64,000 nucleotides of DNA from Anaerolineae bacterium (GTDB lineage Bacteria > Chloroflexota > Anaerolineae > B4-G1 > DUEL01). A program made the position numbers and the translations under genes. The stretch covers positions 1 through 64,000 of the forward strand of contig JBDOIF010000014.1 in assembly GCA_041082215.1 (NCBI GenBank), given 5' to 3'. The notes under the pieces are model-generated. The model did no database searches. It saw only the letters and a program-made list of their open reading frames with translations, and was not told the origin of the DNA. Shown here one piece after another: positions 5,860 to 29,380 of this stretch; position 1 is the stretch's first letter; each line of letters starts with the position of its first letter.

Positions 5860-5973
5860 CCACGAATGGCACGAATGAACCGAATCTTATGAATGTTCCT
5901 GGGCAGCTCTAAACTCGTGAGGCCTGGCCCACGGAATTTGTGCCATTCGCCGGATTCGTGGAATTCGTGATCC
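5860..5973. repeat. CACGAAT/ATTCGTG periodic inverted-repeat element
   Basis: About 4 degenerate (CA)CGAAT units facing about 4 ATTCG(TG) units; same style as the interior of 58159-58249. Confidence 0.65.
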
Positions 5974-5999
5974 ATAAAACTATCTGATGGCTGGTCGCC

Positions 6000-6770
6000 C
6001 TATCTGGAATACATGCCCTCTGGATCGATCTCCTCGCGGATCAGGCGAACCTGCTCCGCCGTCGGCGCTTCCGTGACCGGTAGATCGTCGGGCACGATCG
6101 GCTCAAAGGACATGTTGGCCAGCACATCCTCGAGCGTGATGCCGGGATGGATGGACTCCAGCCGCACCCGTTTGCTCACCGGGTCGAAGCCAAAGACCGC
6201 CTTGTCTGTGATCAGGCGGCTGGGCCCGCCCCGCAGCCTCGCTGCCTCACGCTCCCCGCCTCCCCGCAGATACCCCGGGCTCGTGATGAAGGAGACTGCC
6301 TGGTTGAGTTTGCGCGCTTCGTGGCGAATGATGATGATCGTGCGGCGGGCAGACGACGCAATGTCGTTGGCACCCCCGCTGCCCACGAAATGGCGGAACT
6401 TGCCCCTGGGATCGCCGAGCAGCGTCGTGTTCAGGTTGCCGTACATATCGGTCTCAAGGCCGCCCAGAAACCCCACGTCCACCAGCCCCCTGTGCAGCAC
6501 CGTGCCCAGCATGTCCACAAAACTGCTCAGAACCTTGGCCCGATACCAGACTCGAGGATCGGCCAGGCCTACCCCTGTGTGCACAGGCTCTGGGTCTACC
6601 ACACCCAGCTCGAAAAGTATCGTGATGTTCGGGGCGTGGGTGCGCTTGGCAAGGAAGGACGCCACCACCGGCAGGCCGATCCCCACCGCCACCACCTCGC
6701 CGTCCTTCAACTCACGCGCGCCCGCCGCCGCCATCAGCTCAAGGGGGGTATACTCAAGATATGCGGTCAT
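6000..6770 (-). CDS. Family I CoA-transferase beta subunit (GctB-like)
   Basis: VGIGLP, FELG (catalytic Glu position), DMYGNLNTT, GSGGANDIAS, ITSPGY. Confidence 0.88.
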   Translation of the reverse strand: MTAYLEYTPLELMAAAGARELKDGEVVAVGIGLPVVASFLAKRTHAPNITILFELGVVDPEPVHTGVGLADPRVWYRAKVLSSFVDMLGTVLHRGLVDVGFLGGLETDMYGNLNTTLLGDPRGKFRHFVGSGGANDIASSARRTIIIIRHEARKLNQAVSFITSPGYLRGGGEREAARLRGGPSRLITDKAVFGFDPVSKRVRLESIHPGITLEDVLANMSFEPIVPDDLPVTEAPTAEQVRLIREEIDPEGMYSR

Positions 6771-6788
6771 ACTTGCTCTCCTCGTGCC

Positions 6789-7688
6789 TCAATACCCCAG
6801 AATCGGATCAGCAACCAGGTCGTTCAGACGTTTCATGCCGCCAACCCGCTCCAGGTAATCCCAGTGGTCTTTGACCCCGTACACATACTCATCCAGGTAC
6901 TTTCGGACCCCTTCTGGCGTCTTGGTAGCCTCCGCGTACCGAACGATGTGCTCTGCATCGTAGTCATAGATGCGGTATACAGACGTGGGATGGGCGGAAA
7001 AGGGCAGATGGACCACGTGGGAGACCTTGAACCCCGGGATCACCGTCCGCTCTGCATCGCGGCGGATCACCTCGGTGGGCACAAGACGCTCGGTGATGAC
7101 GATGGCCCGCTGGCTTGCCTTCACCTGCTCCTCGTTATCCCAGCGCGGGCCGTAAATCCAGGCATTCCCTTCCTCGTCGGCCACCTGCACCTGCACCACC
7201 GCCACGTCCGGCACAAGCGGCTTGAGCACCAGCCAGTTCTCTCCGGTAAAGGGGTCATCCACCGTACTGACTTCCGATGGCGCGATCTCCTGCAACCGCC
7301 TGAGGATGTCGGAGCCGCGCAGGGAGCGGATCGGGATGAAGGGCAGGCCGAGGGAGCCGGCCAGGTAGCGGAAGGCCATCGAGAGGCTGCTGTATTCCTC
7401 CGCAACCAGCGTACCCTCTTCAATGCCCCGATTCACGCAGTTGAGCCGGCCGAAGCGGTCGAGCGAGCCGCCGCCGTAGATGATCCGCTCCACCGCCCCC
7501 GCTCCGACCAGCAGGTCCGCATCCATCGCCCCGACGCACTGCGAGACCGTCAGCCCGCGGATGCCCTGGCGGATCACCTCGCGTGCGAAGGCCATATTGC
7601 AGCGGGTGATGGCAAACCCTGAGAGGGCGACGTGCGCCCCTGAGGGGATGGTCGCAACTGCCTCCGCCAGTGTCGCTAACTTGCTCAT
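6789..7688 (-). CDS. Family I CoA-transferase alpha subunit (GctA-like)
   Basis: AGSLGLPFIP, GSDI, PDVAVVQVQVADEEGN, AHPTS; ATG 7688 follows GGAGG. Confidence 0.88.
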   Translation of the reverse strand: MSKLATLAEAVATIPSGAHVALSGFAITRCNMAFAREVIRQGIRGLTVSQCVGAMDADLLVGAGAVERIIYGGGSLDRFGRLNCVNRGIEEGTLVAEEYSSLSMAFRYLAGSLGLPFIPIRSLRGSDILRRLQEIAPSEVSTVDDPFTGENWLVLKPLVPDVAVVQVQVADEEGNAWIYGPRWDNEEQVKASQRAIVITERLVPTEVIRRDAERTVIPGFKVSHVVHLPFSAHPTSVYRIYDYDAEHIVRYAEATKTPEGVRKYLDEYVYGVKDHWDYLERVGGMKRLNDLVADPILGY

Positions 7689-7704
7689 CGGCACCTCCAC
7701 TCAG

Positions 7705-19528: not shown

Positions 19529-21123
19529 GCGTGGAGCGAAAGGAATGGGGCTGGGCGGCAGCCGTGGCCGGGCTGGTGGTGCTGGCCTCCACCATCCCCT
19601 ACCTGGCAGGCTACCTGGCCCAGACCCCGCAGGCCCGCTTCGGAGGCGTCCTGCTGGACCGGATGGACTACCACAGCCACCTGGCGAAGATGTGGCAGGG
19701 GTATCGGGGCCAGTGGCGGTACCGGCTGCTCTTCACGCCGGAGGAGCACCAGGGGGCTTACCTCCAGACCTTCTACGTTGCCCTGGGCCATCTGGCCCGG
19801 CTGACCGGGCTGGGCCTGCCTGCGACCTATCAGCTCGGTCGGGTGGCTTTCGGCTTCCTGATGCTGCTGACCGTTTACCGGTTCATCGCCTTGTTCACCC
19901 CGACGGAGCGGGTCCGGCGGGTGGCCTTTCTGCTGGCGACGACCGCCTCCGGCCTGGGCTGGCTCACCGAGGTGGTCGCCCCCACGCCACCGGGCGGGGT
20001 CTCCCCGATGGATTTCTGGCTGCTGGATGGCTTCACCTACCTGGCGGTGCTGACATCCCCCCATTTCTGTGCTGCGACCGGCCTGCTGCTTCTGGTCTTC
20101 CTGCTCCTCCTGCGCCGCCCTGAAGGGCCTTCCTGGGGGGAGACCGCGCTGGCGGCTCTGGCCTCGCTGGCCCTGGGGATCATCCACCCCTACCTCCTCC
20201 TCCTGGCCGACCTCCTGCCGGTCCTCTACTGGACCTTCGAGGGGCTGCGGACGCGACAGGCGGCCTGGCGGGGGCTGGCGGCGGTGGCGGCGATGGGCAC
20301 ACTTCAACTTCCCCTCCTGGCCTACGACCTGTGGGTCTTCCGCACCCAACCGGTCTTCGCTGGCTGGTCGGCCCAGAACGTGACCCTCTCCCCGCCCCCC
20401 CGCATCTACCTCTGTGGGTACGGGCTGCTCCTGTTGCTGGGAGGCGTGGGGGCACTGGCCTGGGCCCGCCGGGGAGGGGAGGGGCTGGCCTTCCCCCTCC
20501 TGTGGATCGGGACGGTGGCCGTGCTGGCCTACCTGCCGTGGAACCTGCAGCGCCGGTTCCTGGAGGGAGTGCAGGTCCCGCTGGGGTTGCTGGCCGGGGT
20601 GGGACTGGTGGAGATTGCAGATACCAGATTGCAGAGTGGAAGGGGCAGGTGGCTGGCGCTGGCGGGGATGATGGCGCTGGCGATGATGAGCAACCTCTAC
20701 CTGACGGCGGGGTTGACCCTGGCGGCGGCGACCCGCTCTCCGGCCCTCTTCTGGTCGGCCGACCTGGTAGCGGCGGTGGACTGGTTGGGGGAGAACTCCC
20801 TGCCACAGGAGACGGTGCTCTCCGGAGTTGAAGCTGGAGGGCTGATCCCCGCCCGCATCGGCCACCGGGTGGTCGTGGGGCACGGGATGGAGACGGTGGA
20901 TTATCAGGGAAAGCGGGAGGCAGTGGAACGGTTCTTCAGCGTCCGAACTCCCGACGCGGAGCGGCTCGCCCTCCTCGAGAAATGGGGAGTGGCCTGGGTG
21001 TTCTACGGGCCGGAGGAGAGGGGGATGGGGGGATTCAACCCTGCGACGGCCCCCTGGCTGGAACCGGCTTTTCGATCGGGGGAGGTCGCTGTCTACCGGG
21101 TGGCGACGGGAGGGGGGCCGTGA
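19525..21123 (+). CDS. Polytopic membrane protein, probable GT-C glycosyltransferase
   Basis: GTGA-coupled; Asp motif DYHSHLAKM in first loop, FTPEEH, many TMs, C-terminal extracytoplasmic domain. Confidence 0.65.
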   Translation: MSVERKEWGWAAAVAGLVVLASTIPYLAGYLAQTPQARFGGVLLDRMDYHSHLAKMWQGYRGQWRYRLLFTPEEHQGAYLQTFYVALGHLARLTGLGLPATYQLGRVAFGFLMLLTVYRFIALFTPTERVRRVAFLLATTASGLGWLTEVVAPTPPGGVSPMDFWLLDGFTYLAVLTSPHFCAATGLLLLVFLLLLRRPEGPSWGETALAALASLALGIIHPYLLLLADLLPVLYWTFEGLRTRQAAWRGLAAVAAMGTLQLPLLAYDLWVFRTQPVFAGWSAQNVTLSPPPRIYLCGYGLLLLLGGVGALAWARRGGEGLAFPLLWIGTVAVLAYLPWNLQRRFLEGVQVPLGLLAGVGLVEIADTRLQSGRGRWLALAGMMALAMMSNLYLTAGLTLAAATRSPALFWSADLVAAVDWLGENSLPQETVLSGVEAGGLIPARIGHRVVVGHGMETVDYQGKREAVERFFSVRTPDAERLALLEKWGVAWVFYGPEERGMGGFNPATAPWLEPAFRSGEVAVYRVATGGGP

Positions 21124-22694
21124 GCGGGGCCAGGAGGGACCTGCTTGCGCTTTTCCTCCTTTCTCTCGCCGTGCGGCTCGCCACGGCCGCCCTCATCCCC
21201 CGCCCCGGCTATATGGACACGGCCTACTATGCCGCCGGGGCGGTGTGGCTGGCCCGGGGCGGCGGATTGACCGAGCCGTTCATCTGGAACTACCTGGACA
21301 GCCCGGCCGGGCTTCCCCATTCAGGGTTCCTCTACTGGATGCCGCTCCCCTCCCTCCTGGCGGCTCCCTCCGCTATCTTCTTTCCTGGATCTTTCTTCGC
21401 TCTCCAGGTCCCCTTTGCCCTCTTCTCCGCTTTGCTCCCCCCTGTCGCTTTCGCACTGGCCTGGGAGATCACGGGCCGTCGCCGCACCGCCTGGGTAGCC
21501 GGGCTTCTTGTCCTCTTCAGCGGCTTCTTCTTCCCCTACTGGCCCCTTCCCGAGACCTTTGCCCCCTTCGCCCTTTTCGGCAGCCTGGCGCTGTGGCTGG
21601 CAGGGCGGTGGAGACGGGGGAACAATGACTGGTTACTGGTTGCCGGTTGCTCGTTGCTGGTTGGACTGGCCCACCTCACCCGCGCCGACGGCATCCTGCT
21701 CCTCCCCATCGTCGCTCTGGCTCCGCTGATGTCATCTCAGCGACACAGCATGCAACACGGAATACGGAATACGGAATACGTATTCCGTATTGCGTGCTGC
21801 GTATTCGGCTACCTGCTTGTGATGGTCCCCTGGTTCATCCGCAACCTGATCCTGGTCGGCGCGCCGCTTTCCCCCGCCGGGGCGAAGACCCTCTGGCTCA
21901 CCACCTACGACGACCTGTTCTGCTACGGCTGCGACCTCTCCCCCAGCTCCTATCTGGCCTGGGGCTGGCCTAACATCCTGCATTCCAAACTCTGGGCGCT
22001 GGGGTTGAACCTGGAGCGGTTCCTGGCAGAGGACTGTCTGATCTTCCTGTGCCCTTTCGTCCTTATCGGCCTCTATCGCCTGCGCCGCCACCCCGCCATC
22101 TCCCTCCCCTGCATATACTTATTGCTTGCCTACTTGCTTCACTCCCTGGCCTTCACCTTCCCTGGCCCCCGGGGGGGGGTCTTTCACGCCAGTGCAGCGG
22201 CGTTGCCCGCGCTGATGGCCGCCGGGGCGGAGGGGCTGGAGGCGGCGGTGGGATGGGCGGGCCGTCGGCGACGGTGGAACCTGCGGCAGGCCCGGGGCGT
22301 CTTCTCAGCGGCGGCGGTGGGGCTGGCGGTGGCCCTCAGCCTCTACATAGCGGCAGGGAAGCTGCCCGACTGGCGGGAGGCCGACCAGGCCTATCAGGAG
22401 ATCGGCCGCTGGATGGCAGGGCACGGGGCACAGGACGCAAGGGTGATGGTCGCCAACCCCCCGGCCTTCTGGTACCACACCGGCCTGCCAGCCGTCGTGG
22501 TGCCCAACGGGGATGTGGAAACGGCGCTGGCGGCGGCGGACCGGTATGGCGTGGGCTATTGTGTCCTGGACCGGAACCGGCCTGCGCCGCTGGCAGAGCT
22601 CTATGCGGGGACGACGACCCATCCCCGGCTGCGGCCGCTTGCGGAATGGGGAGAGGAGGAAGAGCGTGTGGTCCTTTTCCAGGTGGAGCGGTGA
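21120..22694 (+). CDS. GT-C membrane glycosyltransferase (GT39-like)
   Basis: GTGA-coupled; GYMDTAYY, YWMPL, HLTRADG. Confidence 0.72.
   Translation: MSGARRDLLALFLLSLAVRLATAALIPRPGYMDTAYYAAGAVWLARGGGLTEPFIWNYLDSPAGLPHSGFLYWMPLPSLLAAPSAIFFPGSFFALQVPFALFSALLPPVAFALAWEITGRRRTAWVAGLLVLFSGFFFPYWPLPETFAPFALFGSLALWLAGRWRRGNNDWLLVAGCSLLVGLAHLTRADGILLLPIVALAPLMSSQRHSMQHGIRNTEYVFRIACCVFGYLLVMVPWFIRNLILVGAPLSPAGAKTLWLTTYDDLFCYGCDLSPSSYLAWGWPNILHSKLWALGLNLERFLAEDCLIFLCPFVLIGLYRLRRHPAISLPCIYLLLAYLLHSLAFTFPGPRGGVFHASAAALPALMAAGAEGLEAAVGWAGRRRRWNLRQARGVFSAAAVGLAVALSLYIAAGKLPDWREADQAYQEIGRWMAGHGAQDARVMVANPPAFWYHTGLPAVVVPNGDVETALAAADRYGVGYCVLDRNRPAPLAELYAGTTTHPRLRPLAEWGEEEERVVLFQVER
21757..21806. repeat. Intragenic ACGGAAT heptamer inverted-tandem repeat
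   Basis: cacggaatacggaatacggaatacg tattccgtattgcgtg; same family as 50984-51025. Confidence 0.8.
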
Positions 22695-24192
22695 ACCGGC
22701 CCGCCGATCTTTCCTGATAGCCCTGGCCGTCGCCCTCTCCGTGGGCCTCTATTTGGGCTGGTCGGGACTCCGGGGAGCCATCGGCTTTCCCCTGGACGAC
22801 GCCTGGATCCATCAAACCTACGCCCGCAACCTGGTCGAATACGGCCAGTGGGCCTTTCTGCCCGGCCGGCCCAGCGCCGGCTCCACCTCCCCCCTGTGGA
22901 CCCTCCTCCTGGCGGTCGGGTACGGGCTGGGGCTTCCCTTCCGCCTGTGGACCTATGGGCTGGGCGGGCTCTGCCTGGTGGGGACGGCACTCCTGTCCGC
23001 CCGTCTGGCCGGGCGGCTCTTCCCCAACCACCCCTCGATCCCCCTGCTGGCGGGGCTTGCCGCAGCGCTGGAGTGGCATCTGGTGTGGGCCGCCGTTTCC
23101 GGGATGGAGACGCTGCTCTTCGTATGGCTGGCGCTGGCCCTCTGGGATCGGGTGATCGCCGGGCCTTCGCGTCGCCCCTTCCTCACCGGCCTCCTGGGTG
23201 GCGCGCTGGTCCTCACCCGACCGGAAGGGGCGGTGGCGGTAGGGCTGGCGGCGGTCGGCGCGGCCTGGGCTGAGGCCACAGATGGGCGCTGGCGGCAGGG
23301 GCTGACGGCAGCAGGGTGGATGGCAGCGGGGACCGGTGTGGTGGTCGCTCCCTACCTGGCCCTCAACTTCCACCTGAGCGGGACCCTCTGGCCCAACACC
23401 TTCTATGCCAAGCAGGCGGAGTACGCCGCCCTCCTGGCCCAGCCGCTGACGGTGCGGCTGTGGCGGGTGGGGACCGCGCCGCTGGTCGGCGCGCAGGCGC
23501 TTCTGCTGCCGGGACTGATCGGGGGTATGGCACGGGCTGCCCGTCGGGGCCTGAGAGGTTCGGCGGCGGCCTGGTGGCTTCCCCTGATCTGGGCTGCAGC
23601 GACGGCGGCCATCTACGCCCTCCGGCTCCCTGTCACCTACCAGCACGGCCGATACCTCATCCCCGTGGTCCCCGTGATCCTCACTTATGGCACGGGCGGC
23701 ACCCTGGCCCTCCTGGCCCGCATCGGGCGATGGGGGCGCACACATGGTGCGCCCCTTCTCCGCGCCTGGGCCCTCTCCATCGCCGTCCTCTTCCTGGCCT
23801 TTCTGCTCCTGGGAGCCCGGGCCTACGCGACCGACGTGGCGATCATCGAGGGGGAGATGGTCGCTGTGGCCCGCTGGATCAACGAACACACCGGGCCGGA
23901 TGCCCTCATCGCCGTCCACGACATCGGCGCAGTGGGGTACTTCGCCCGGCGGCCCCTGCTCGACCTGGCGGGGCTGGTCAACCCGGAGGTGGTCCCCTTC
24001 ATCCGGGACGAGGCCCGGCTGATGGCCTGGCTGGAGGCGCAGGGGGCCGACTACCTGGTCACCTTCCCCTCCTGGTACCCCACCCTCACCGCCGACCCCC
24101 GCCTGGAAGAGGTCTACCGCACCGGCGCGGCGGTGACGGTGGAGCAGGGGGGGGAGAACATGGCCGTCTACGCCATCCGCTGGGGGCGCTGA
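22666..24192 (+). CDS. GT-C membrane glycosyltransferase (AftB-like motif set)
   Basis: DDAWIHQTYARNL, GSTSPLW, SGMET, RPEG, HDIGA, DLAGLV; GTG 22666 after GGAGG. Confidence 0.7.
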   Translation: MWSFSRWSGEPARRSFLIALAVALSVGLYLGWSGLRGAIGFPLDDAWIHQTYARNLVEYGQWAFLPGRPSAGSTSPLWTLLLAVGYGLGLPFRLWTYGLGGLCLVGTALLSARLAGRLFPNHPSIPLLAGLAAALEWHLVWAAVSGMETLLFVWLALALWDRVIAGPSRRPFLTGLLGGALVLTRPEGAVAVGLAAVGAAWAEATDGRWRQGLTAAGWMAAGTGVVVAPYLALNFHLSGTLWPNTFYAKQAEYAALLAQPLTVRLWRVGTAPLVGAQALLLPGLIGGMARAARRGLRGSAAAWWLPLIWAAATAAIYALRLPVTYQHGRYLIPVVPVILTYGTGGTLALLARIGRWGRTHGAPLLRAWALSIAVLFLAFLLLGARAYATDVAIIEGEMVAVARWINEHTGPDALIAVHDIGAVGYFARRPLLDLAGLVNPEVVPFIRDEARLMAWLEAQGADYLVTFPSWYPTLTADPRLEEVYRTGAAVTVEQGGENMAVYAIRWGR

Positions 24193-24359: not shown

Positions 24360-24375
24360 ATACGGAGGTGTGGAG

Positions 24376-24618
24376 ATGGAGACCTGTGTCAAGAAGTGGG
24401 GAAATAGTCTGGCTTTACGCATTCCCAGACCGCTGGCTGGAGAGGTTGGCCTGGAAGAGGATTCCCCAGTACGAATCTCAGTGGAGGAGGGGAAGCTGGT
24501 TATCGTCCCGATCCTGAGAGCTCGCTATACCCTGGAGGCCCTGCTGGCTCAAGTGACAGCCCAGAATCTGCACAGTGAAGTAGATACTGGTGAGGCTGTG
24601 GGGGGTGAAGTGTGGTGA
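24376..24618 (+). CDS. mazE: AbrB/MazE-type antitoxin
   Basis: KKWGNSLALRIP...YTLEALLAQVT...G.EVW. Confidence 0.92.
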   Translation: METCVKKWGNSLALRIPRPLAGEVGLEEDSPVRISVEEGKLVIVPILRARYTLEALLAQVTAQNLHSEVDTGEAVGGEVW

Positions 24619-24959
24619 GGGGGCAGGGGTATGTGCCGGAGCGGGGGGAAGTGGTTTGGATCACGCTGAACCCTCAGGCAGGGCACGAGCAGGCAGGACG
24701 TCGGCCAGCGGTGGTGTTATCACCGTCAGCGTACAATGGCAAGGTGGGGTTGGCAATTTTGTGTCCAATCACTAACCAAGAGAAGGGGTACCCTTTTGAG
24801 GTCAAGGTGCCGGCAGGGCTTGGGGTAACAGGGGTGATTCTGGCCGACCAAGTCAAGAGTTTGGATTGGCGAGCAAGAGAGGCAGAGAGGATATGCACCC
24901 TGCCGCGTGAGGTGATGGCTGAGGTGCTGGGAAAGCTGAGCACATTGTTGTCAGACTAG
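24612..24959 (+). CDS. mazF: MazF/PemK endoribonuclease toxin
   Basis: PQAGHEQAGRRPAVVLS, CPIT, GYPFEV, DQVKSLDWRAR. Confidence 0.95.
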   Translation: MVRGQGYVPERGEVVWITLNPQAGHEQAGRRPAVVLSPSAYNGKVGLAILCPITNQEKGYPFEVKVPAGLGVTGVILADQVKSLDWRAREAERICTLPREVMAEVLGKLSTLLSD

Positions 24960-24973
24960 AGAACTGTTAGATT

Positions 24974-25690
24974 CTAAGAGCCGATCCCCTCCACCGCCAG
25001 CTCCCGCGCGCCGGTATCCACGAACCCCAACGACTCCGCCAGGCGGATGGAGGCCTCGTTCTCCTCGTCGGCGATGTAGAGGGGCTGGATGCCGGAGCGG
25101 AGCACCCAGGCCACGCAGGCATCCACCACCGCCTTTCCCCACCCCCGCCTTTGCGCCTGGGGCGCTGTCCACACATAGATCTCGGCGAAGTGAGGGGAGT
25201 ACCAGTTCAACCCCGATTCGGCCGCCACTTCTCCCCCTGAGTGGATGACGAAGCGGGGGGAGCCATCGGCGGCGCGGGCAGGCACCACCAGGACGTTGAT
25301 GGAAGGGGCATACCGCCGCAGGTCGAGCCGGTACACCCGGTTAAGCCCGGACCGTTCCACCTCCAGCGCGCCGGCCACTGCCGCCTGCAGCTCCGGGGTG
25401 GTGACCAGGTAGTAGGGCCGCCGGGGCAGCAGGCCCCGCTTCAAAAGCTCCGCCGCCACGCCCTCCCCCCGCGCGCGCAGCACCGCCGTCTGCCGGAAGA
25501 GGTCCCGTCCCGTCTGGCAGACAGCGAGGAAGCCCTCGGCCCGTCCCTCCCGCTCCTCCACCACCAGCCGGGTCCGCGCCGGGTCGTGGTAGAGGGCGTA
25601 GTAGGCCGCCATCCCGTCGCGGGGTGCGGAGAGATCGAGCAGGGGGCGCACCTTTCGACGCAGCTCTTCGATCCGTTCAGCCTCCGCCAT
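24974..25690 (-). CDS. GNAT-family N-acetyltransferase (C-terminal GNAT domain)
   Basis: VWTAPQAQRRGWGK, NEASIRLAESLGF. Confidence 0.85.
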   Translation of the reverse strand: MAEAERIEELRRKVRPLLDLSAPRDGMAAYYALYHDPARTRLVVEEREGRAEGFLAVCQTGRDLFRQTAVLRARGEGVAAELLKRGLLPRRPYYLVTTPELQAAVAGALEVERSGLNRVYRLDLRRYAPSINVLVVPARAADGSPRFVIHSGGEVAAESGLNWYSPHFAEIYVWTAPQAQRRGWGKAVVDACVAWVLRSGIQPLYIADEENEASIRLAESLGFVDTGARELAVEGIGS

Positions 25691-26159
25691 ATCCCCGTAG
25701 CTCCACCGCCCGAACGATCATCTCCCGATCGAGCCAGTACAGCCCCTCGGGGAGCGCGTCGGGAGCCACCCAGCGGGCATCCAGAATCTCCCCGCTGAAG
25801 CGATCCACCTTACCCTCCACCTCGCAAAGAAAGCCCGTCTCCAGATGGCCGGGCAGATAGCCCAGGTCAACCAGCACCGGCGGGCCGACCCTCACCGCCA
25901 GCCCCAACTCCTCCATCAGCTCCCGCCGCAGCGCATCCTGCGGCCGCTCCCGTCGCCGCACCCAGCCCCCCGGCAGCCCCCAGGGATACGCCCCCCGGAA
26001 GACATGCTCCAAGAGCAGGACCTCCCCTCTGGAATTGAACACCACGCCGCTGACGCCGACGGTGAAGCGGGCGGCGACCAGATGGATCAGGCGGACGAGG
26101 AGCGGGTAAAGGAGGGGGACCCGGCGCATCAGGCCGGCGATGGACCGTTTCAACCGCAC
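25677..26159 (-). CDS. NUDIX hydrolase
   Basis: Nudix box GGWVRRRERPQDALRRELMEELGL. Confidence 0.9.
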   Translation of the reverse strand: MRLKRSIAGLMRRVPLLYPLLVRLIHLVAARFTVGVSGVVFNSRGEVLLLEHVFRGAYPWGLPGGWVRRRERPQDALRRELMEELGLAVRVGPPVLVDLGYLPGHLETGFLCEVEGKVDRFSGEILDARWVAPDALPEGLYWLDREMIVRAVELRGYGGG

Positions 26160-27226
26160 GGATCACCTCCCCTTCCCGCCAGCGCAGGAGGCCAGGCTTC
26201 GACCAGCGGGCGCGCCAGCTCCCGGTTCAGGTGCAGGAACGGCTCCTCGGCGTGCAGGTCGCCGTAGCAGACCTGCGCCGCGGCCTTGCATCCGCCCTGG
26301 CACTCGTCGTGGCGAGCGCAGGGGGCGCAGAATGCCGGCACAGCGGCGACGAAGTCCGCCAGCCGCTCCGGGGCAATGATGTCGGCGAACGGCTCCTCCC
26401 ACACATTGCCCAGGACCGTGGGGGTGTGGTTGCAGGGGCGGACGTTGCCGGCCGTGTCCAGGGTGTAATAGGCGCGGCCGGAGCCGGCAGCGCAGAAGCC
26501 GTGCCCCAGGTGGGGGTAAGCAGAAAGGTCAATCAGACAGGGCTGGATGGGGATGGAGCAAGAGATGGGGAGATGGAACTCCTGCGTGGCAGCCTCGGCG
26601 ACCTCCAGCGCCCGGCGCATCTCTTCCACCGTGGGCAGCAGGTCCAGATGCGCCGCGCCCCGTCCGCCAGGGTTGAACCGGTTGAGCATCAGCCCGCGGG
26701 CGCCGAAGGCAAAGGCCAGCCGGACCGTATCCCAGAGGTCGCCAATGTTGACAGAGGTGGCGACGAAGACGACCACCGCCTGCCCCCGGTGGGCGCGGAT
26801 GTGGGCCAGCGCCGCCAGCACCGCGTCGAAGGCCCCTTCTACCCCGACGAGACCATCGTGGACGGAGCGGCGGTAGCTTAGAAGCGGCAGCTCGAACAGC
26901 GTCACGCCGGCGCGGATCAGCTCGGCCGCAAGCCCGTCGGTGAGGCGATGGCCGTTGGTGATCAGGTTGATGCGGACGTCACGGGCGGCCAGGAAGCCGA
27001 CGATCTGGAGCAGGTCGGGCCGCAGCAGAGGTTCGCCCCCGGTCAGCGTGACGTGGGTGCAGTCCACCTGATCCAAGACATGGGCCAGCAGGGGGCGGAT
27101 GTCCGCTTCGGGGAGGCCCTCGCGCGGCGCATCCGGGTGGTTCCAGATGTTGTAACAGTAGCAACAGGCGTGGTCGCAGGCGCGGGTCACCTCGACGATC
27201 AGCGTCGGCAGCCGGGGACGGGCCAT
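26150..27226 (-). CDS. Radical SAM/SPASM-domain protein
   Basis: CDHACCYC, TGGEP, ITNG; SPASM cysteines FCAAG...RPC...CAPCARHDECQGGC. Confidence 0.92.
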   Translation of the reverse strand: MARPRLPTLIVEVTRACDHACCYCYNIWNHPDAPREGLPEADIRPLLAHVLDQVDCTHVTLTGGEPLLRPDLLQIVGFLAARDVRINLITNGHRLTDGLAAELIRAGVTLFELPLLSYRRSVHDGLVGVEGAFDAVLAALAHIRAHRGQAVVVFVATSVNIGDLWDTVRLAFAFGARGLMLNRFNPGGRGAAHLDLLPTVEEMRRALEVAEAATQEFHLPISCSIPIQPCLIDLSAYPHLGHGFCAAGSGRAYYTLDTAGNVRPCNHTPTVLGNVWEEPFADIIAPERLADFVAAVPAFCAPCARHDECQGGCKAAAQVCYGDLHAEEPFLHLNRELARPLVEAWPPALAGRGGDPCG

Positions 27227-27236
27227 AACGGTCGGC

Positions 27237-27911
27237 CTACCTCTCCTCCAGCAATAGCTGCACCAGAATCCGCGCCGCCTCCACCGACTCCGGCGGGATC
27301 TCCAGGTCCAGTTCGGCCAGGGTCGGCCAGTCCATTCCTTCGCCTGCGGCCTCGACCACAGCGTTGATGAGCGCCTGCTGCTCCTCGGCGGGCATAGTGA
27401 GGAAAGCGATATCCCGCTCGATGGAGGCCTGCGCCTGGGCGACGGTCTCGGGGTTCAGGTCGCCCTGGGCGGCCATTTCAGCCAGGATCTCGGCCTGGCG
27501 AGCCAGGTCGCTGGCGCCCTGGACCCCGTACTCGGGGTAAAGCGCAGGCGTGTAGCAGGTGATGGGCGCGTTGGCCCGCCAGACGTGGCGGGCGGCCGCC
27601 TCGAAGGCGGTCTGCAGGTCATCCGCGATGGCGGAGTCCAGTTCGCCCGACTCGACCAGCGCGTCGAGCGCGGAGCGGTGCCCGGCGATGAGCCGGTCCA
27701 GGGTCTGCTGGCCCTTTTCCACATCCTTGGCGTCGCGGGCCAGGAGGTCCAGGTCCTCCCATGGCGCGCGCAGGTCGTCCCACAGATCGCCCGTCCCGCC
27801 GGATGGCGGTGTGACGGCTGGCACGTAGCAGGCCGGCCTGCACCGGGAAAGCAGGAGCGAGGCCAGCGTCACCCCCAGGGCCTGCATAAACTCACGTCGC
27901 GTCGCTTTCAT
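27237..27911 (-). CDS. Twin-arginine-signal (probable lipo)protein of unknown function with two Cys-Tyr-x-Pro motifs
   Basis: MKATRREFM, hydrophobic stretch, LSRC; PACYVPA and ITCYTPA; acidic helical body. Confidence 0.75.
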   Translation of the reverse strand: MKATRREFMQALGVTLASLLLSRCRPACYVPAVTPPSGGTGDLWDDLRAPWEDLDLLARDAKDVEKGQQTLDRLIAGHRSALDALVESGELDSAIADDLQTAFEAAARHVWRANAPITCYTPALYPEYGVQGASDLARQAEILAEMAAQGDLNPETVAQAQASIERDIAFLTMPAEEQQALINAVVEAAGEGMDWPTLAELDLEIPPESVEAARILVQLLLEER

Positions 27912-28001
27912 TCATCACCTCATTTCCCCCCGTCGTTTAGGCGTACTGATTCAGGAAGGCTCCGACCTCTGCCTTCAGCTCATCCCAGCCCGCTGGTTGG
28001 A

Positions 28002-28031
28002 GTAGGACAACTCCGCAGAAGTTGTCCCTGC
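28002..28031. repeat. GTAG-type REP-like hairpin after asnS
   Basis: GTAGGACAACTCCGCAGAAGTTGTCCCTGC; stem GGACAACT/AGTTGTCC. Confidence 0.6.
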
Positions 28032-28042
28032 AGCCGCTGCAA

Positions 28043-29380
28043 TTAAGGATACACCCGTTTCAACGTCCTGGGGAACGGGATTGTCTCCCGCAGGTGGTCA
28101 ATGCCGCAGATCCAGGTCACCGTCCGTTCCACCCCCAGCCCGAAGCCGGAATGGGGGACCGAGCCGTACTTGCGCAGGTCGAGGTACCACTCGAACGCCT
28201 CCCGGGGCAGGTTCCATTCCTCCAGCCGCCTGAGCAGGAGGTCGGGGTCGGAGATGCGCTCCGAGCCGCCGATGATCTCCCCGTACCCTTCAGGAGCCAG
28301 CAGGTCGGCGCTCTTGGTGATCTCCGGTCGCCCGGGCCACGGCTCCATATAGAACGCCTTGGCGACCGTAGGGTAACCGTAGACAAAGACCGGTTTCTCG
28401 AACCGTTTGGTCAGTTCCGTCTCGTGGGGGGAGCCGAAGTCCTCCCCCCACTCGATCCTGAGGAGTTCCTTCAGCTCCAGGTCGTCCGTCTCCCGGCGGA
28501 TTTCGGCCAGCATCTGGATCGCCTCGTCGTAGGAGACGCGGGGGAAGGGAGGTTCCACCTTCTCCAGCAGCCGGGTATCCCGCTCCAGAAACGCCAGCTC
28601 TGCCGCCCGCTCCCGCAGGCAGGTCTGGACGATGTAGGAGACGAACTGCTCCTCGATCTCCATCAGTTGGTCCAGGTCGCAGAAGGCGATCTCCGGCTCG
28701 ACCATCCAGAACTCGGTCAGGTGGCGGCGGGTTTTGGACTTCTCGGCGCGGAAGGTGGGGCCGAAGCAGTAGACGCGGCCGAAGGCGTAGATGTTGGCCT
28801 CGTTGTAGAGTTGTCCCGACTGGGCCAGGTAGGCCGGCTCGCCGAAGTAATCGGTCTCGAAAAGGGTCGTCGTCCCCTCGCAGGCGGCGGGGGTGAGGAT
28901 GGGGGTATCCAGGTTGGTGAACCCGTGGCTATCCAGCCAGTCCCGGATTGCCCGGACGACGGTGGCCCGCACCCGCAGGATCGCCCACTGGCGTCGGGAG
29001 CGGATCCACAGGTGGCGGTGGTCCAGCAGGAAATCCACCCCGTGCTCCTTGGGCTGGATCGGGTACTCCTCGGCGAACTGGAGCACCTGGAGGTCGGTGA
29101 CCCCCAGCTCGAAGCCGCCGGGGATGCCAGGGGCGCGGGGGTCCTCCCGGACCACGCCGGTGAGGATGAGGGAGGACTCCTGGGTGAGCCGGCGGGCTGC
29201 GTCGAAGGCGTCGGGGGGGACCTCCTTCTGGAAGACGACGCACTGGACGAAGCCGGTCCCGTCGCGGACCTGGAGGAACTGGAGCCGGCCCTTGTCGGTG
29301 CGGCTGTAGAGCCACCCCTGGAGGCGGACCTCCTGGCCGACATAGCGGGCGATATCCTGGATACGGATTGTCTCTACCAT
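28043..29380 (-). CDS. asnS: Asparagine--tRNA ligase
   Basis: OB-fold N-terminus, [62 protein letters not shown] 29380 after GGAGG. Confidence 0.93.

Follow-up and report, generated by a model that had tools for sequence, protein, structure and literature searches.

In the window (the whole stretch of 64,000 nucleotides of DNA that we analyzed), a gene for an all-helical protein with a conserved Cys-Tyr motif precedes a gene for a radical SAM/SPASM enzyme (rSAM). Adjacency, co-occurrence across genomes, and a model of the complex support the view that the two genes are a conserved functional pair. The pair is a conserved unit of uncultured Chloroflexota, probably an undescribed protein-modification system. 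(The Chloroflexota are filamentous and largely uncultured.) The explanation that we favor, and that we consider reasonably likely, is a two-gene protein-maturation cassette in which the rSAM modifies the Cys-Tyr (CY) dipeptide of the helical protein before the Tat system exports it. We will call the helical protein the Cys-Tyr protein.

As the initial annotation had it, an acidic protein of 224 amino acids ends shortly before a complete rSAM/SPASM gene; we confirmed both open reading frames on the minus strand (Table 1). The Cys-Tyr protein gene comes first, and 10 nt (27227-27236) separate the two. By our reading of the sequence, a GGAGAGG lies inside the 3' end of the Cys-Tyr protein gene, ahead of the rSAM start. 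A scan of positions 24800-28200 found no promoter or terminator.

Table 1. The two-gene unit and its features, in window coordinates.
Feature	Position	Strand	Remarks
Cys-Tyr loop protein gene	27237..27911	-	ORF, 224 aa; putative rSAM substrate
Radical SAM/SPASM gene	26150..27226	-	Complete ORF, 358 aa; Pfam PF04055 and PF13186
GAGGTGA, Shine-Dalgarno / ribosome-binding site	27915..27921	-	Read from the sequence; 3 nt ahead of the ATG of the Cys-Tyr protein gene
Cys-Tyr protein residues 1-24: T-R-R-E-F-M-Q twin-arginine signal, hydrophobic core, Cys24 in LSRC	27840..27911	-	Lipobox-like, with R at -1
Cys-Tyr protein residues 26-32, P-A-C-Y-V-P-A	27816..27836	-	Optional extra CY copy in Pro/Thr tether
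Cys-Tyr protein residues 115-122, A-P-I-T-C-Y-T-P	27546..27569	-	Core motif; loop between helices 93-114 and 128-149
Cys-Tyr protein residues 131-163, two helices predicted to dock on rSAM	27423..27521	-	Complex model
rSAM residues 17-24, C-x3-C-x2-C, radical SAM cluster site	27155..27178	-	Cysteines invariant in 58 orthologues
rSAM residues 223-320, SPASM region with nine conserved cysteines	26267..26560	-	Orthologue alignment and PF13186 match

Two other data sets touch on these genes. Inside the two genes, 11 of the 15 differences between the window and a near-identical strain from another study are synonymous, a sign of selection that we count for the protein-modification reading. Also, low-depth contigs from a metatranscriptome library span portions of both genes. 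They hint only weakly that both may be expressed, because DNA carry-over into that library is possible.

The Cys-Tyr protein is acidic (pI 4.28, with 38 Asp and Glu residues versus 17 Lys and Arg) and has only three cysteines: C24 (in LSRC), C28 (in PACYVPA), and C119 (in ITCYTPA). Their wider contexts are LLSRC, RPACYVPA, and PITCYTPALYPEYG. The acidity, the TRREF twin-arginine N-terminus, and the cysteine contexts are as first described. The remark that this is not a characterized family also holds, as no curated Pfam or NCBIfam model covers either the Cys-Tyr protein or its rSAM subfamily. Profile searches of both databases placed the Cys-Tyr protein in no family. (We dismissed its sole Pfam match, FIMAH, which scored 17.8 bits, below the cut-off of 24.8.) A literature search found no paper on the family. 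A word-indexed search gave 204 matches, and the family has 562 representatives at 50% identity.

We examined which parts of the protein are conserved. Across 120 family sequences, T118, C119, and Y120 are invariant, and so are H78 and H109. Of 148 further representatives at 50% identity, 138 contain the CY dipeptide, and a divergent set (29-53% identity) still shows at least 90% conservation of C119 and Y120. Judging from these alignments, the CY motif is conserved beyond chance and its internal copy is the hallmark of the family. The initial annotation had stressed two near-identical CY motifs; the internal one stands and the N-terminal one is optional. Copies of T-C-Y in the N-terminal tether number none in 74 of the 120 sequences, one in 32, two in 13, and three in 1, and nearly all of those in the 46 sequences that have them read [PT]-T-C-Y-x-[PVA]. 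The motif is multiplied in other ways too: one member has its core CY loop in triplicate (P0364), and a multi-domain member of 1478 amino acids has nine CY. Five long representatives of 404-1478 amino acids (P0242, P0258, P0277, P0292, and P0379) contain no Pfam domain at all, and hence no Radical_SAM domain; the sequences of P0242 and P0379 show repeats of the Cys-Tyr domain itself. A search for longer forms of the Cys-Tyr protein found no match at E ≤ 1e-5; as evidence, this is weak.

In the AlphaFold2 (AF2) model, the Cys-Tyr protein is all-helical, with nine helices and a mean pLDDT of 78.4. Residues 118-122 form a loop between two helices with pLDDT below 50, so the model puts the CY motif in an exposed, accessible loop. 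We could not name a known fold: Foldseek against the PDB gave no match at E ≤ 1e-3, the wide VIA-align search matched residues ~38-120 to generic three-helix bundles and to nothing more specific (best Z 6.8), and the ESM Atlas recognized only Tat-signal clusters, with scores of at most 0.79.

The N-terminus suggests export by Tat. Substrates of Tat start with an S/T-R-R-x-F-L-K motif and a hydrophobic stretch, and the Cys-Tyr protein has T-R-R-E-F-M-Q. Across the family, R5, R6, F8, and C24 are conserved at 90% or above, and R5, R6, and F8 are also conserved in the set at 29-53% identity. No Tat-signal HMM matched the protein at E ≤ 0.01. The same genome encodes TatC (215 bits) and both Lgt and LspA. 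A lipobox at the end of a signal has the consensus [LVI][ASTVI][GAS]-C. The site at C24 had been described as lipobox-like: the cysteine itself is conserved, and the residue at -1 falls outside the textbook lipobox (R in 83 of 110 sequences, G in 19). A solute-binding protein (SBP_bac_1) with a Tat signal in the same genome, which carries 'LLISRCAPKPTPT', likewise has I-S-R-C. Going by the sequence, Cys24 would probably anchor the Cys-Tyr protein on the outside of the membrane.

We then turned to the enzyme. Members of the SPASM subgroup combine a CX3CX2C site with a C-terminal domain in which 7-8 cysteines bind two auxiliary clusters. Both its sequence and its structural model assign the 358-amino-acid enzyme to this subgroup of the radical SAM superfamily. 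Both Pfam domains score above their cut-offs: Radical_SAM (PF04055) with 70.9 bits versus 29.5, and SPASM (PF13186; residues 250-303) with 24.2 bits versus 21.5. C17, C21, and C24 (CX3CX2C) are invariant in 58 orthologues, as are C230, C245, C265, C300, C303, C309, and C313, and C223 and C320 are conserved at 90% or above. The AF2 model has a pLDDT of 92.8, and its nearest folds are SkfB, SuiB, PqqE, anSME, ChlB, and CteB, that is, by the model, peptide- or protein-modifying SPASM and twitch enzymes. By sequence, its matches among solved chains include PqqE (6c8v, E 2.8e-11) and SkfB (6efn, E 4.1e-8). The rSAM core begins at about residue 9, and a Pfam search found no RRE/PqqD domain. Among ORF clusters from 39 loci and the window, we found no small conserved gene beside the pair that could be a separate RRE.

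Comparison with NCBIfam models assigns the enzyme to none of the subfamilies it most resembles. The best match is GeoRSP (TIGR04303; 102.1 bits versus a cut-off of 400), and MftC (TIGR03962; 92.0 versus 265), PqqE (TIGR02109; 86.6 versus 381.35), and the 'rSAM_w_lipo' family (TIGR04133; 51.4 versus 425) also match. Each of the best 25 of 63 matches is far below its own cut-off.

Are the two genes reliably together? In 37 of 39 species-representative loci, an orthologous rSAM (50-79% identity) lies directly downstream of the last copy of the Cys-Tyr protein. As to the two exceptions, one contig (L036) stops within the Cys-Tyr protein gene, and the other locus (L008) belongs to a MAG whose second locus (L014) does have the rSAM. 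One to three copies of the Cys-Tyr protein precede a single rSAM, with tandem paralogues at 9 of the 39 loci. We count the tandem paralogues ahead of one enzyme in favor of the Cys-Tyr protein being the substrate, as this is the usual layout of precursor and maturase. Also, 8 of 61 related genomes carry the Cys-Tyr protein; the same 8 carry the rSAM (E ≤ 1e-40), and the remaining 53 carry neither. The adjacency first noted in the window is thus general in the species-representative loci and looser in a divergent subgroup, in which the rSAM is adjacent at 3 of 8 testable loci. (These eight loci come from a metagenome scan.) At the other five (L056, L059, L060, L063, and L066), there is no rSAM on the contig and the proteins keep the CY. 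At one locus (L037), the two proteins form one ORF of 578 amino acids; the C-termini of both are out of register, so we took this to be an assembly error and not a genuine fusion.

Clustering the ORFs of the 39 loci and the window revealed no conserved neighbor beyond the pair. The clusters that come next, present in 33-37 loci, are made up of shadow ORFs that overlap the pair itself, and the largest others are in 13 and 7 loci. AsnRS upstream and Nudix and GNAT genes downstream are common only to the closest relatives (L001, L002, L003, and L008).

A model of the complex of the two proteins scored highly, with ipSAE of 0.89, 0.90, and 0.88 in three runs and 0.00 for the best control. Of 157 solved complexes, 116 reach the ipSAE mark, as do 2 of 215 mismatched pairs, and these counts are only a rough calibration because the alignments were custom-made and small molecules were included. 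The three runs shared at least 40% of contacts, with pLDDT of 61-63 for the partner. Structure searches found no similar solved complex for the Cys-Tyr partner. The confident interface on the Cys-Tyr protein comprises residues 131, 135, 138-140, 142-143, 146, 151-153, 155-156, 159-160, and 162-163. Docking is thus predicted to go through the helices of residues 131-163, on the outer face of the rSAM barrel and away from the active site. Residues 118-122 are absent from the confident contacts, and the model places nothing of the CY motif in the active site. We had considered that docking might use the best-conserved surface in the family, and dropped this, as the interface residues are not significantly more conserved than the remainder of either protein (0.70 versus 0.65 for the Cys-Tyr protein, permutation p 0.21; 0.79 versus 0.74 for the rSAM, p 0.19).

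Our proposal is as follows. The leaderless rSAM/SPASM enzyme would bind the ~200-amino-acid helical protein in the cytoplasm via the helices that follow the loop. It would use the 5'-deoxyadenosyl radical to modify the CY dipeptide of the exposed loop, and T-C-Y copies in the tether, where present, would be modified likewise. We infer that modification comes before export: the finished, folded protein would leave by Tat and would probably be held on the outside of the membrane by Cys24. By analogy with thioether-forming and Cys-oxidizing SPASM enzymes, a first guess at the chemistry is a thioether or other oxidative change centered on Cys119 and Tyr120.

A bolder version, which we put forward tentatively and rate as possible, is that the adjacent Cys and Tyr of a folded protein become a crosslink or cofactor not seen before (for instance, a small ring that joins Cys-S to Tyr). 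Built-in helical docking would take the place of leader and RRE, and Tat would deliver the finished lipoprotein to the surface. If so, these would be exported proteins of a new class, made on the ribosome and matured by a radical SAM enzyme. The family, large and with no Pfam or NCBIfam model, is tied to one dedicated enzyme and has a single invariant Cys-Tyr site. Its predicted docking needs neither leader peptide nor RRE, and the possible gain is new post-translational chemistry or a protein-derived cofactor on a Chloroflexota surface protein. Most rSAM/SPASM enzymes that are known produce short modified peptides, and to our knowledge few whole proteins serve as substrates (sulfatases, QhpC, and CrpA, on which see below).

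Could the enzyme instead act on a small molecule? Like AhbD and NirJ, it might make or alter a tetrapyrrole or some other small cofactor; the helical protein would be the carrier that binds this via Cys119, Tyr120, His78, and His109 and is then exported by Tat. Proteins that receive a cofactor in the cytoplasm typically leave by Tat, the two histidines are as invariant as the CY, and the modelled docking goes through helices and not through the motif. Also, the scores for AhbD (TIGR04545; 95.6 bits), NirJ2 (85.4), and NirJ (82.7) are near that of the best match, GeoRSP. These scores are, however, far below cut-offs of 500 (that of AhbD) and above. The Pro/Thr tether that holds the extra T-C-Y copies is disordered and cannot form a binding pocket, there are several precursor-like paralogues per enzyme, the pair has no conserved biosynthetic gene next to it, and the nearest folds modify peptides and proteins. 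We consider this route unlikely.

Another role for the helical protein would be that of a signal-bearing subunit of a stable heterodimer, which would take the Fe-S enzyme along through Tat, so that the rSAM works outside the cytoplasm. A confident helix-on-helix interface away from the active site would suit this. But we know of no SAM or low-potential reductant outside the cytoplasm, there are up to three paralogues per enzyme as well as orphan copies without rSAM, and neither the invariance of the CY in its exposed loop nor the tether copies would be explained. We judge this quite improbable.

The initial annotation had also raised tyramine excision at an x-Y-G site by a PlpX-type splicease; modification of the Tyr into a three-residue cyclophane is a related idea. 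The window's protein does have P-E-Y-G after the CY motif, and Y128 is 97% conserved. But the family consensus there is P-D-Y-x: G129 is the majority residue in only 28% of 120 sequences and E127 in 61%, so the EYG is not conserved and only the Tyr is kept. Nor is there a splicease model among the best 25 of 63 NCBIfam matches. We give this very little credence. As little can be said for chance neighbors, or shared regulation only, with the rSAM acting on something else: the five loci of the divergent subgroup without an adjacent rSAM would fit, but adjacency at 37 of 39 loci, presence in the same 8 of 61 genomes, a context that is not conserved outside the pair, and a complex model that passes its own controls all argue against it.

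If the rSAM does modify the Cys-Tyr protein, how would this compare with known systems? First, the best sequence matches of the rSAM are PqqE, MftC, SkfB, and GeoRSP-type maturases. Of these, PqqE and MftC target a Tyr in the peptide that they modify. These enzymes have short peptides and a PqqD/RRE partner, whereas the window's rSAM has neither. It does not belong with the RRE-type RiPP maturases (no Pfam match to PqqD), and its scores are far below the cut-offs for GeoRSP, MftC, PqqE, and AhbD.

Second, like anSME/AtsB, the window's rSAM is a leaderless, RRE-less rSAM/SPASM enzyme of about 360 amino acids, and we propose that it too acts in the cytoplasm on a whole export-bound protein with a short Cys-centered motif. 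The enzyme anSMEcpe is among its nearest folds (4k37_A, E 6e-13, TMq 0.68). The anSME motif in sulfatases is C/S-x-P/A-x-R, whereas the Cys-Tyr family has T-C-Y-x-P (T-C-Y-T-P-A in the window). The partner is not a sulfatase, because no Pfam family matches it, and the rSAM does not appear to be an anSME: no anSME model is among the best 25 of 63 NCBIfam matches.

Third, QhpD, an rSAM/SPASM enzyme of the quinohemoprotein amine dehydrogenase system, reportedly forms Cys thioethers in the QhpC subunit while this is still in the cytoplasm, a step in making a protein-derived cofactor. The proposed action on a protein before export is similar. QhpC is said to be small, with several cysteines, and to be encoded within a larger operon; by that description the window pair differs, as its protein has a single CY site plus a Tat signal and no further gene is conserved beside the two.

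Finally, CrpC from Methanococcus voltae is described as a SPASM rSAM with a predicted RRE that modifies a co-encoded full-size protein, CrpA, which is another whole-protein SPASM substrate and is cysteine-rich with several ranthionine crosslinks (PMC13692751). Going by that description, the window's pair differs in the three cysteines of its protein and in an enzyme without an RRE, and it resembles CrpC/CrpA in that the putative substrate is a co-encoded full-size protein and not a short peptide.

The helical protein, a putative substrate, is encoded 10 nt ahead of a gene for a radical SAM/SPASM enzyme (the rSAM). The initial annotation had described the two open reading frames, the 10-nt gap, the contexts of the cysteines, and the completeness of the rSAM/SPASM gene, and it was correct throughout. 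With a pI of 4.28 and 38 Asp and Glu versus 17 Lys and Arg, the helical protein is acidic; it has three cysteines: Cys24 (LLSRC), Cys28 (RPACYVPA), and Cys119 (PITCYTPA). The best-supported explanation is that the two proteins are a dedicated substrate and its maturase. The rSAM would dock on the helices adjoining the Cys-Tyr loop and would modify the core Cys-Tyr site (Cys119-Tyr120), plus any copies in the Pro/Thr-rich tether downstream of the signal; this would precede Tat export. Candidate chemistries are a thioether from Cys119, oxidation of the cysteine, or a crosslink centered on the tyrosine.

Features of the gene pair and its surroundings in the window
Feature	Position	Strand	Remarks
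Helical protein gene	27237-27911	-	ORF, 224 aa
Radical SAM/SPASM gene	26150-27226	-	ORF, 358 aa
Ribosome-binding site GAGGTGA	3 nt 5' of helical protein ATG	-	read from sequence
GGAGAGG	within 3' end of helical protein gene, preceding rSAM start	-	read from sequence
Nudix hydrolase gene, then GNAT acetyltransferase gene	24974-26159	-	160 aa, overlaps rSAM stop by 10 nt; 238 aa
MazE-like antitoxin overlapping PemK/MazF-like toxin (type II toxin-antitoxin pair)	24370-24959	+	82 aa, PF04014; 115 aa, PF02452, 105.5 bits; convergent with end of GNAT gene
Two overlapping long ORFs, multi-pass membrane proteins	20982-24192	+	570 and 559 aa; no Pfam match at E<=1e-4
Candidate 8-bp hairpin, GGACAACT - 7-nt loop - AGTTGTCC	28005-28027	-	16 nt past stop of AsnRS-like gene; without T-run; not called by terminator scan

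The hairpin may set the AsnRS-like gene apart from the cassette.

The helical protein belongs to a large family that has no model in NCBIfam or Pfam. (Its sole Pfam match, to FIMAH, was rejected because it scores 17.8 bits, below the cut-off of 24.8.) With a word-indexed search, 204 relatives were detected at E<=1e-3; the top-scoring 120 of these have no Pfam domain, are named only "hypothetical protein", and come from MAGs of Anaerolineae or Chloroflexi. Profile searching across 1.84 billion representatives gave 562 matches at E<=1e-3, of which 131 reach E<=1e-30. Across 120 aligned sequences, Trp51, His78, Leu82, Ala106, His109, Thr118, Cys119, Tyr120, Leu136, Gln139, Leu143, Asp167, Ala212, Leu216, and Leu220 are invariant, and conservation of Arg5, Arg6, Phe8, and Cys24 is 90% or higher. 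In a set chosen to be divergent (29-53% identity), ten positions reach that level: Arg5, Arg6, and Phe8 of the Tat motif along with Arg48, Trp51, His78, Cys119, Tyr120, Gln139, and Asp167. The AlphaFold2 model is all-helical (mean pLDDT 78.4). Foldseek found no match to it at E<=1e-3, and VIA-align found only generic three-helix bundles (top Z 6.8), so no known fold could be assigned.

As the initial annotation had anticipated, the Cys-Tyr motif is conserved in homologs: besides the invariant Thr118-Cys119-Tyr120, at least one Cys-Tyr is present in 138 of 148 further representatives, and many of the other 10 are fragments. In these representatives the residue before the cysteine is mostly Thr, but Ser, Met, Val, Ile, Glu, and Gly also occur. 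Of the two motifs that were originally pointed out, only the core copy is invariant; the N-terminal PACYVPA is optional, as extra tether copies are found in just 46 of the 120 sequences (one copy in 32, two in 13, and three in 1). Almost all of the extra copies match [PT]-T-C-Y-x-[PVA]. Another representative, P0364, has three Cys-Tyr within its core loop, and in the 1478-residue P0379 the domain is repeated about seven times, with nine Cys-Tyr in domains and linkers. (P0379 has an N-terminal hydrophobic segment ending in AQAQQ, preceded by S-R-R-R-K-I, and lacks the family's canonical T-R-R-x-F start.) In the AlphaFold2 model, residues 118-122 lie between helices 93-114 and 128-149, in a loop whose pLDDT is below 50. 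The motif behaves as a short linear site. Elsewhere in the window's genome, a lipoprotein-like ORF (G000:C78:82233-82961, minus strand) has its signal cysteine directly before a tyrosine (LLAGCYMPAAPDVTPTP), followed by a Pro/Thr-rich region and two LysM-looking repeats; this Cys-Tyr after the lipobox resembles the family's tether copies, possibly by chance.

The rSAM has the CX3CX2C motif (Cys17, Cys21, and Cys24) and matches Radical_SAM (70.9 bits) and SPASM (24.2 bits) in Pfam, where no PqqD/RRE domain was found. Its 63 matches in NCBIfam are all weak, the best being GeoRSP (102.1 bits, cut-off 400), AhbD (95.6 bits, cut-off 500), MftC (92.0 bits, cut-off 265), and PqqE (86.6 bits, cut-off 381). 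Among solved chains, its sequence matches PqqE (2.8e-11), SkfB (4.1e-8), and 8wm2, an Fe-S radical SAM chain (3.9e-5), and the folds closest to its AlphaFold2 model (pLDDT 92.8) are SkfB, SuiB, PqqE, BlsE, anSME, ChlB, and CteB (TMq 0.58-0.68). These matches point to a fold typical of peptide- or protein-modifying SPASM or twitch enzymes and to no specific subfamily. Across 58 orthologs, seven C-terminal cysteines never vary and a further two are conserved in 90% or more, a pattern consistent with two auxiliary clusters.

We co-folded the rSAM and residues 25-224 of the helical protein, each with its alignment, together with SAM and three 4Fe-4S clusters. Three runs gave ipSAE values of 0.89, 0.90, and 0.88, versus 0.00 for the best control. 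Solved complexes reach this mark in 116 of 157 cases and mismatched pairs in 2 of 215, counts that are only a rough guide here because we used our own alignments and included ligands. No solved complex is like this one, which makes memorization of a known structure an unlikely reason for the high score. The runs share at least 40% of contacts, with a pLDDT of 61-63 for the helical protein. The confident interface joins rSAM residues 97, 118-120, 134-145, 169-175, and 217-218, which lie on outer helices (132-145 and 161-173 in the AlphaFold2 model) and nearby loops, to residues 131-163 of the helical protein, which are the two helices after the Cys-Tyr loop. Conservation at the interface does not exceed that of the remaining residues (p = 0.21 for the helical protein and 0.19 for the rSAM). 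Because the confident contacts leave out the Cys-Tyr motif, binding is supported by the model but the site of chemistry is not. A route for cofactor loading is the likeliest of four less probable alternatives; the next is that the rSAM is itself carried by Tat, hitch-hiking on the helical protein.

In the best-supported explanation the helical protein is a putative Tat substrate. Its N-terminal T-R-R-E-F-M-Q, which agrees with the twin-arginine consensus, is conserved even in the divergent set, and the window's genome encodes TatC, Lgt, and LspA. The proposed lipobox-like LSRC holds up in its cysteine, but the residue before Cys24 is Arg in 83 of 110 sequences (Gly in 19), a departure from the textbook lipobox. 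In the same genome, a Tat-signal SBP_bac_1 solute-binding protein has a signal ending with LLISRCAPKPTPT, so this lineage may accept Arg-Cys as a variant of the Tat lipobox.

A splicease is an unlikely alternative. The initial annotation had offered EYG as a modification site, but EYG is not conserved: among the 120 sequences, the majority residue is found at 61% for Glu127, 97% for Tyr128, and 28% for Gly129.

The last alternative, chance adjacency of two genes, has to contend with an rSAM ortholog (50-79% identity) right after the last helical protein copy in 37 of 39 loci, in a scan that took a single genome for each GTDB species. In one exception (L036) the contig stops within the helical protein gene; in the other (L008) Nudix and GNAT genes follow with no rSAM between, and the same MAG has a complete pair at a second locus (L014). 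The 39 record titles are mostly of Chloroflexota lineages, with Rickettsiales in two and Halioglobus in one. Two or three tandem paralogs precede a single rSAM in 9 loci, and the rSAM is better conserved than the helical protein (34-63% identity). (An apparent fusion of the two in L037, a 578-aa ORF at 5962-7698, was set aside: both C-termini are out of register, and an indel error in this long-read MAG is the probable cause.) No other neighbors are conserved across the 39 loci. AsnRS upstream and Nudix and GNAT downstream are common to the nearest relatives only, with Nudix and GNAT accompanying the cassette just in L001, L003, and L008.

The predicted adjacency of rSAM genes thus held for the species representatives, but it is not universal. 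Among 11 metagenome loci from a divergent subgroup (core loop R-Q-x-A-T-C-Y-I-A-L-P), only 3 of the 8 that could be judged have an rSAM directly downstream (L058, L061, and L062). The other five (L056, L059, L060, L063, and L066) have none in 1.5-4 kb of downstream contig, and L057, L064, and L065 could not be judged. The orphan copies whose core region is on the contig (all but L066) keep the Cys-Tyr, and the tandem copy L057a has lost its core Cys-Tyr and kept a tether copy. An rSAM acting in trans may serve such orphans; the MAG with both L008 and L014 is an example of this arrangement.

Among 61 relatives, counting the window's genome, the helical protein is present in 8, and the rSAM (E<=1e-40) is in exactly the same 8 (G000, G402, G403, G405, G409, G410, G447, and G455). 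These are kin and not independent, yet they are spread over 8 genera. Occurrence of the cassette is rare and patchy: a phylum-wide sample of 401 genomes has it in 3, and the family to which the window's genome belongs has it in 5 of 25 other genomes. The window's genome itself has one copy.

A separate study yielded a 13.9-kb DNA contig that spans 24900-28567 with 23 differences. Fifteen are within the two genes, where all 3 in the helical protein gene and 8 of the 12 in the rSAM gene are synonymous, 11 in total. Metatranscriptome contigs cover parts of both genes (26323-26504, 26478-26939, and 27636-27878, at depths of 3.7-5), which is a weak hint that the pair is transcribed, as DNA carry-over is possible. 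The runs containing the stretch are labeled as hot-springs metagenomes.

A full-text literature search found no publication on the helical protein family. The pair appears to belong to none of the anSME, QhpD, or CrpC families: the HMM scores are far under the cut-offs and the substrate and motif differ. In function, the pair would be like anSME acting on sulfatases and QhpD acting on QhpC. It would also be functionally like CrpC with CrpA (PMC13692751).
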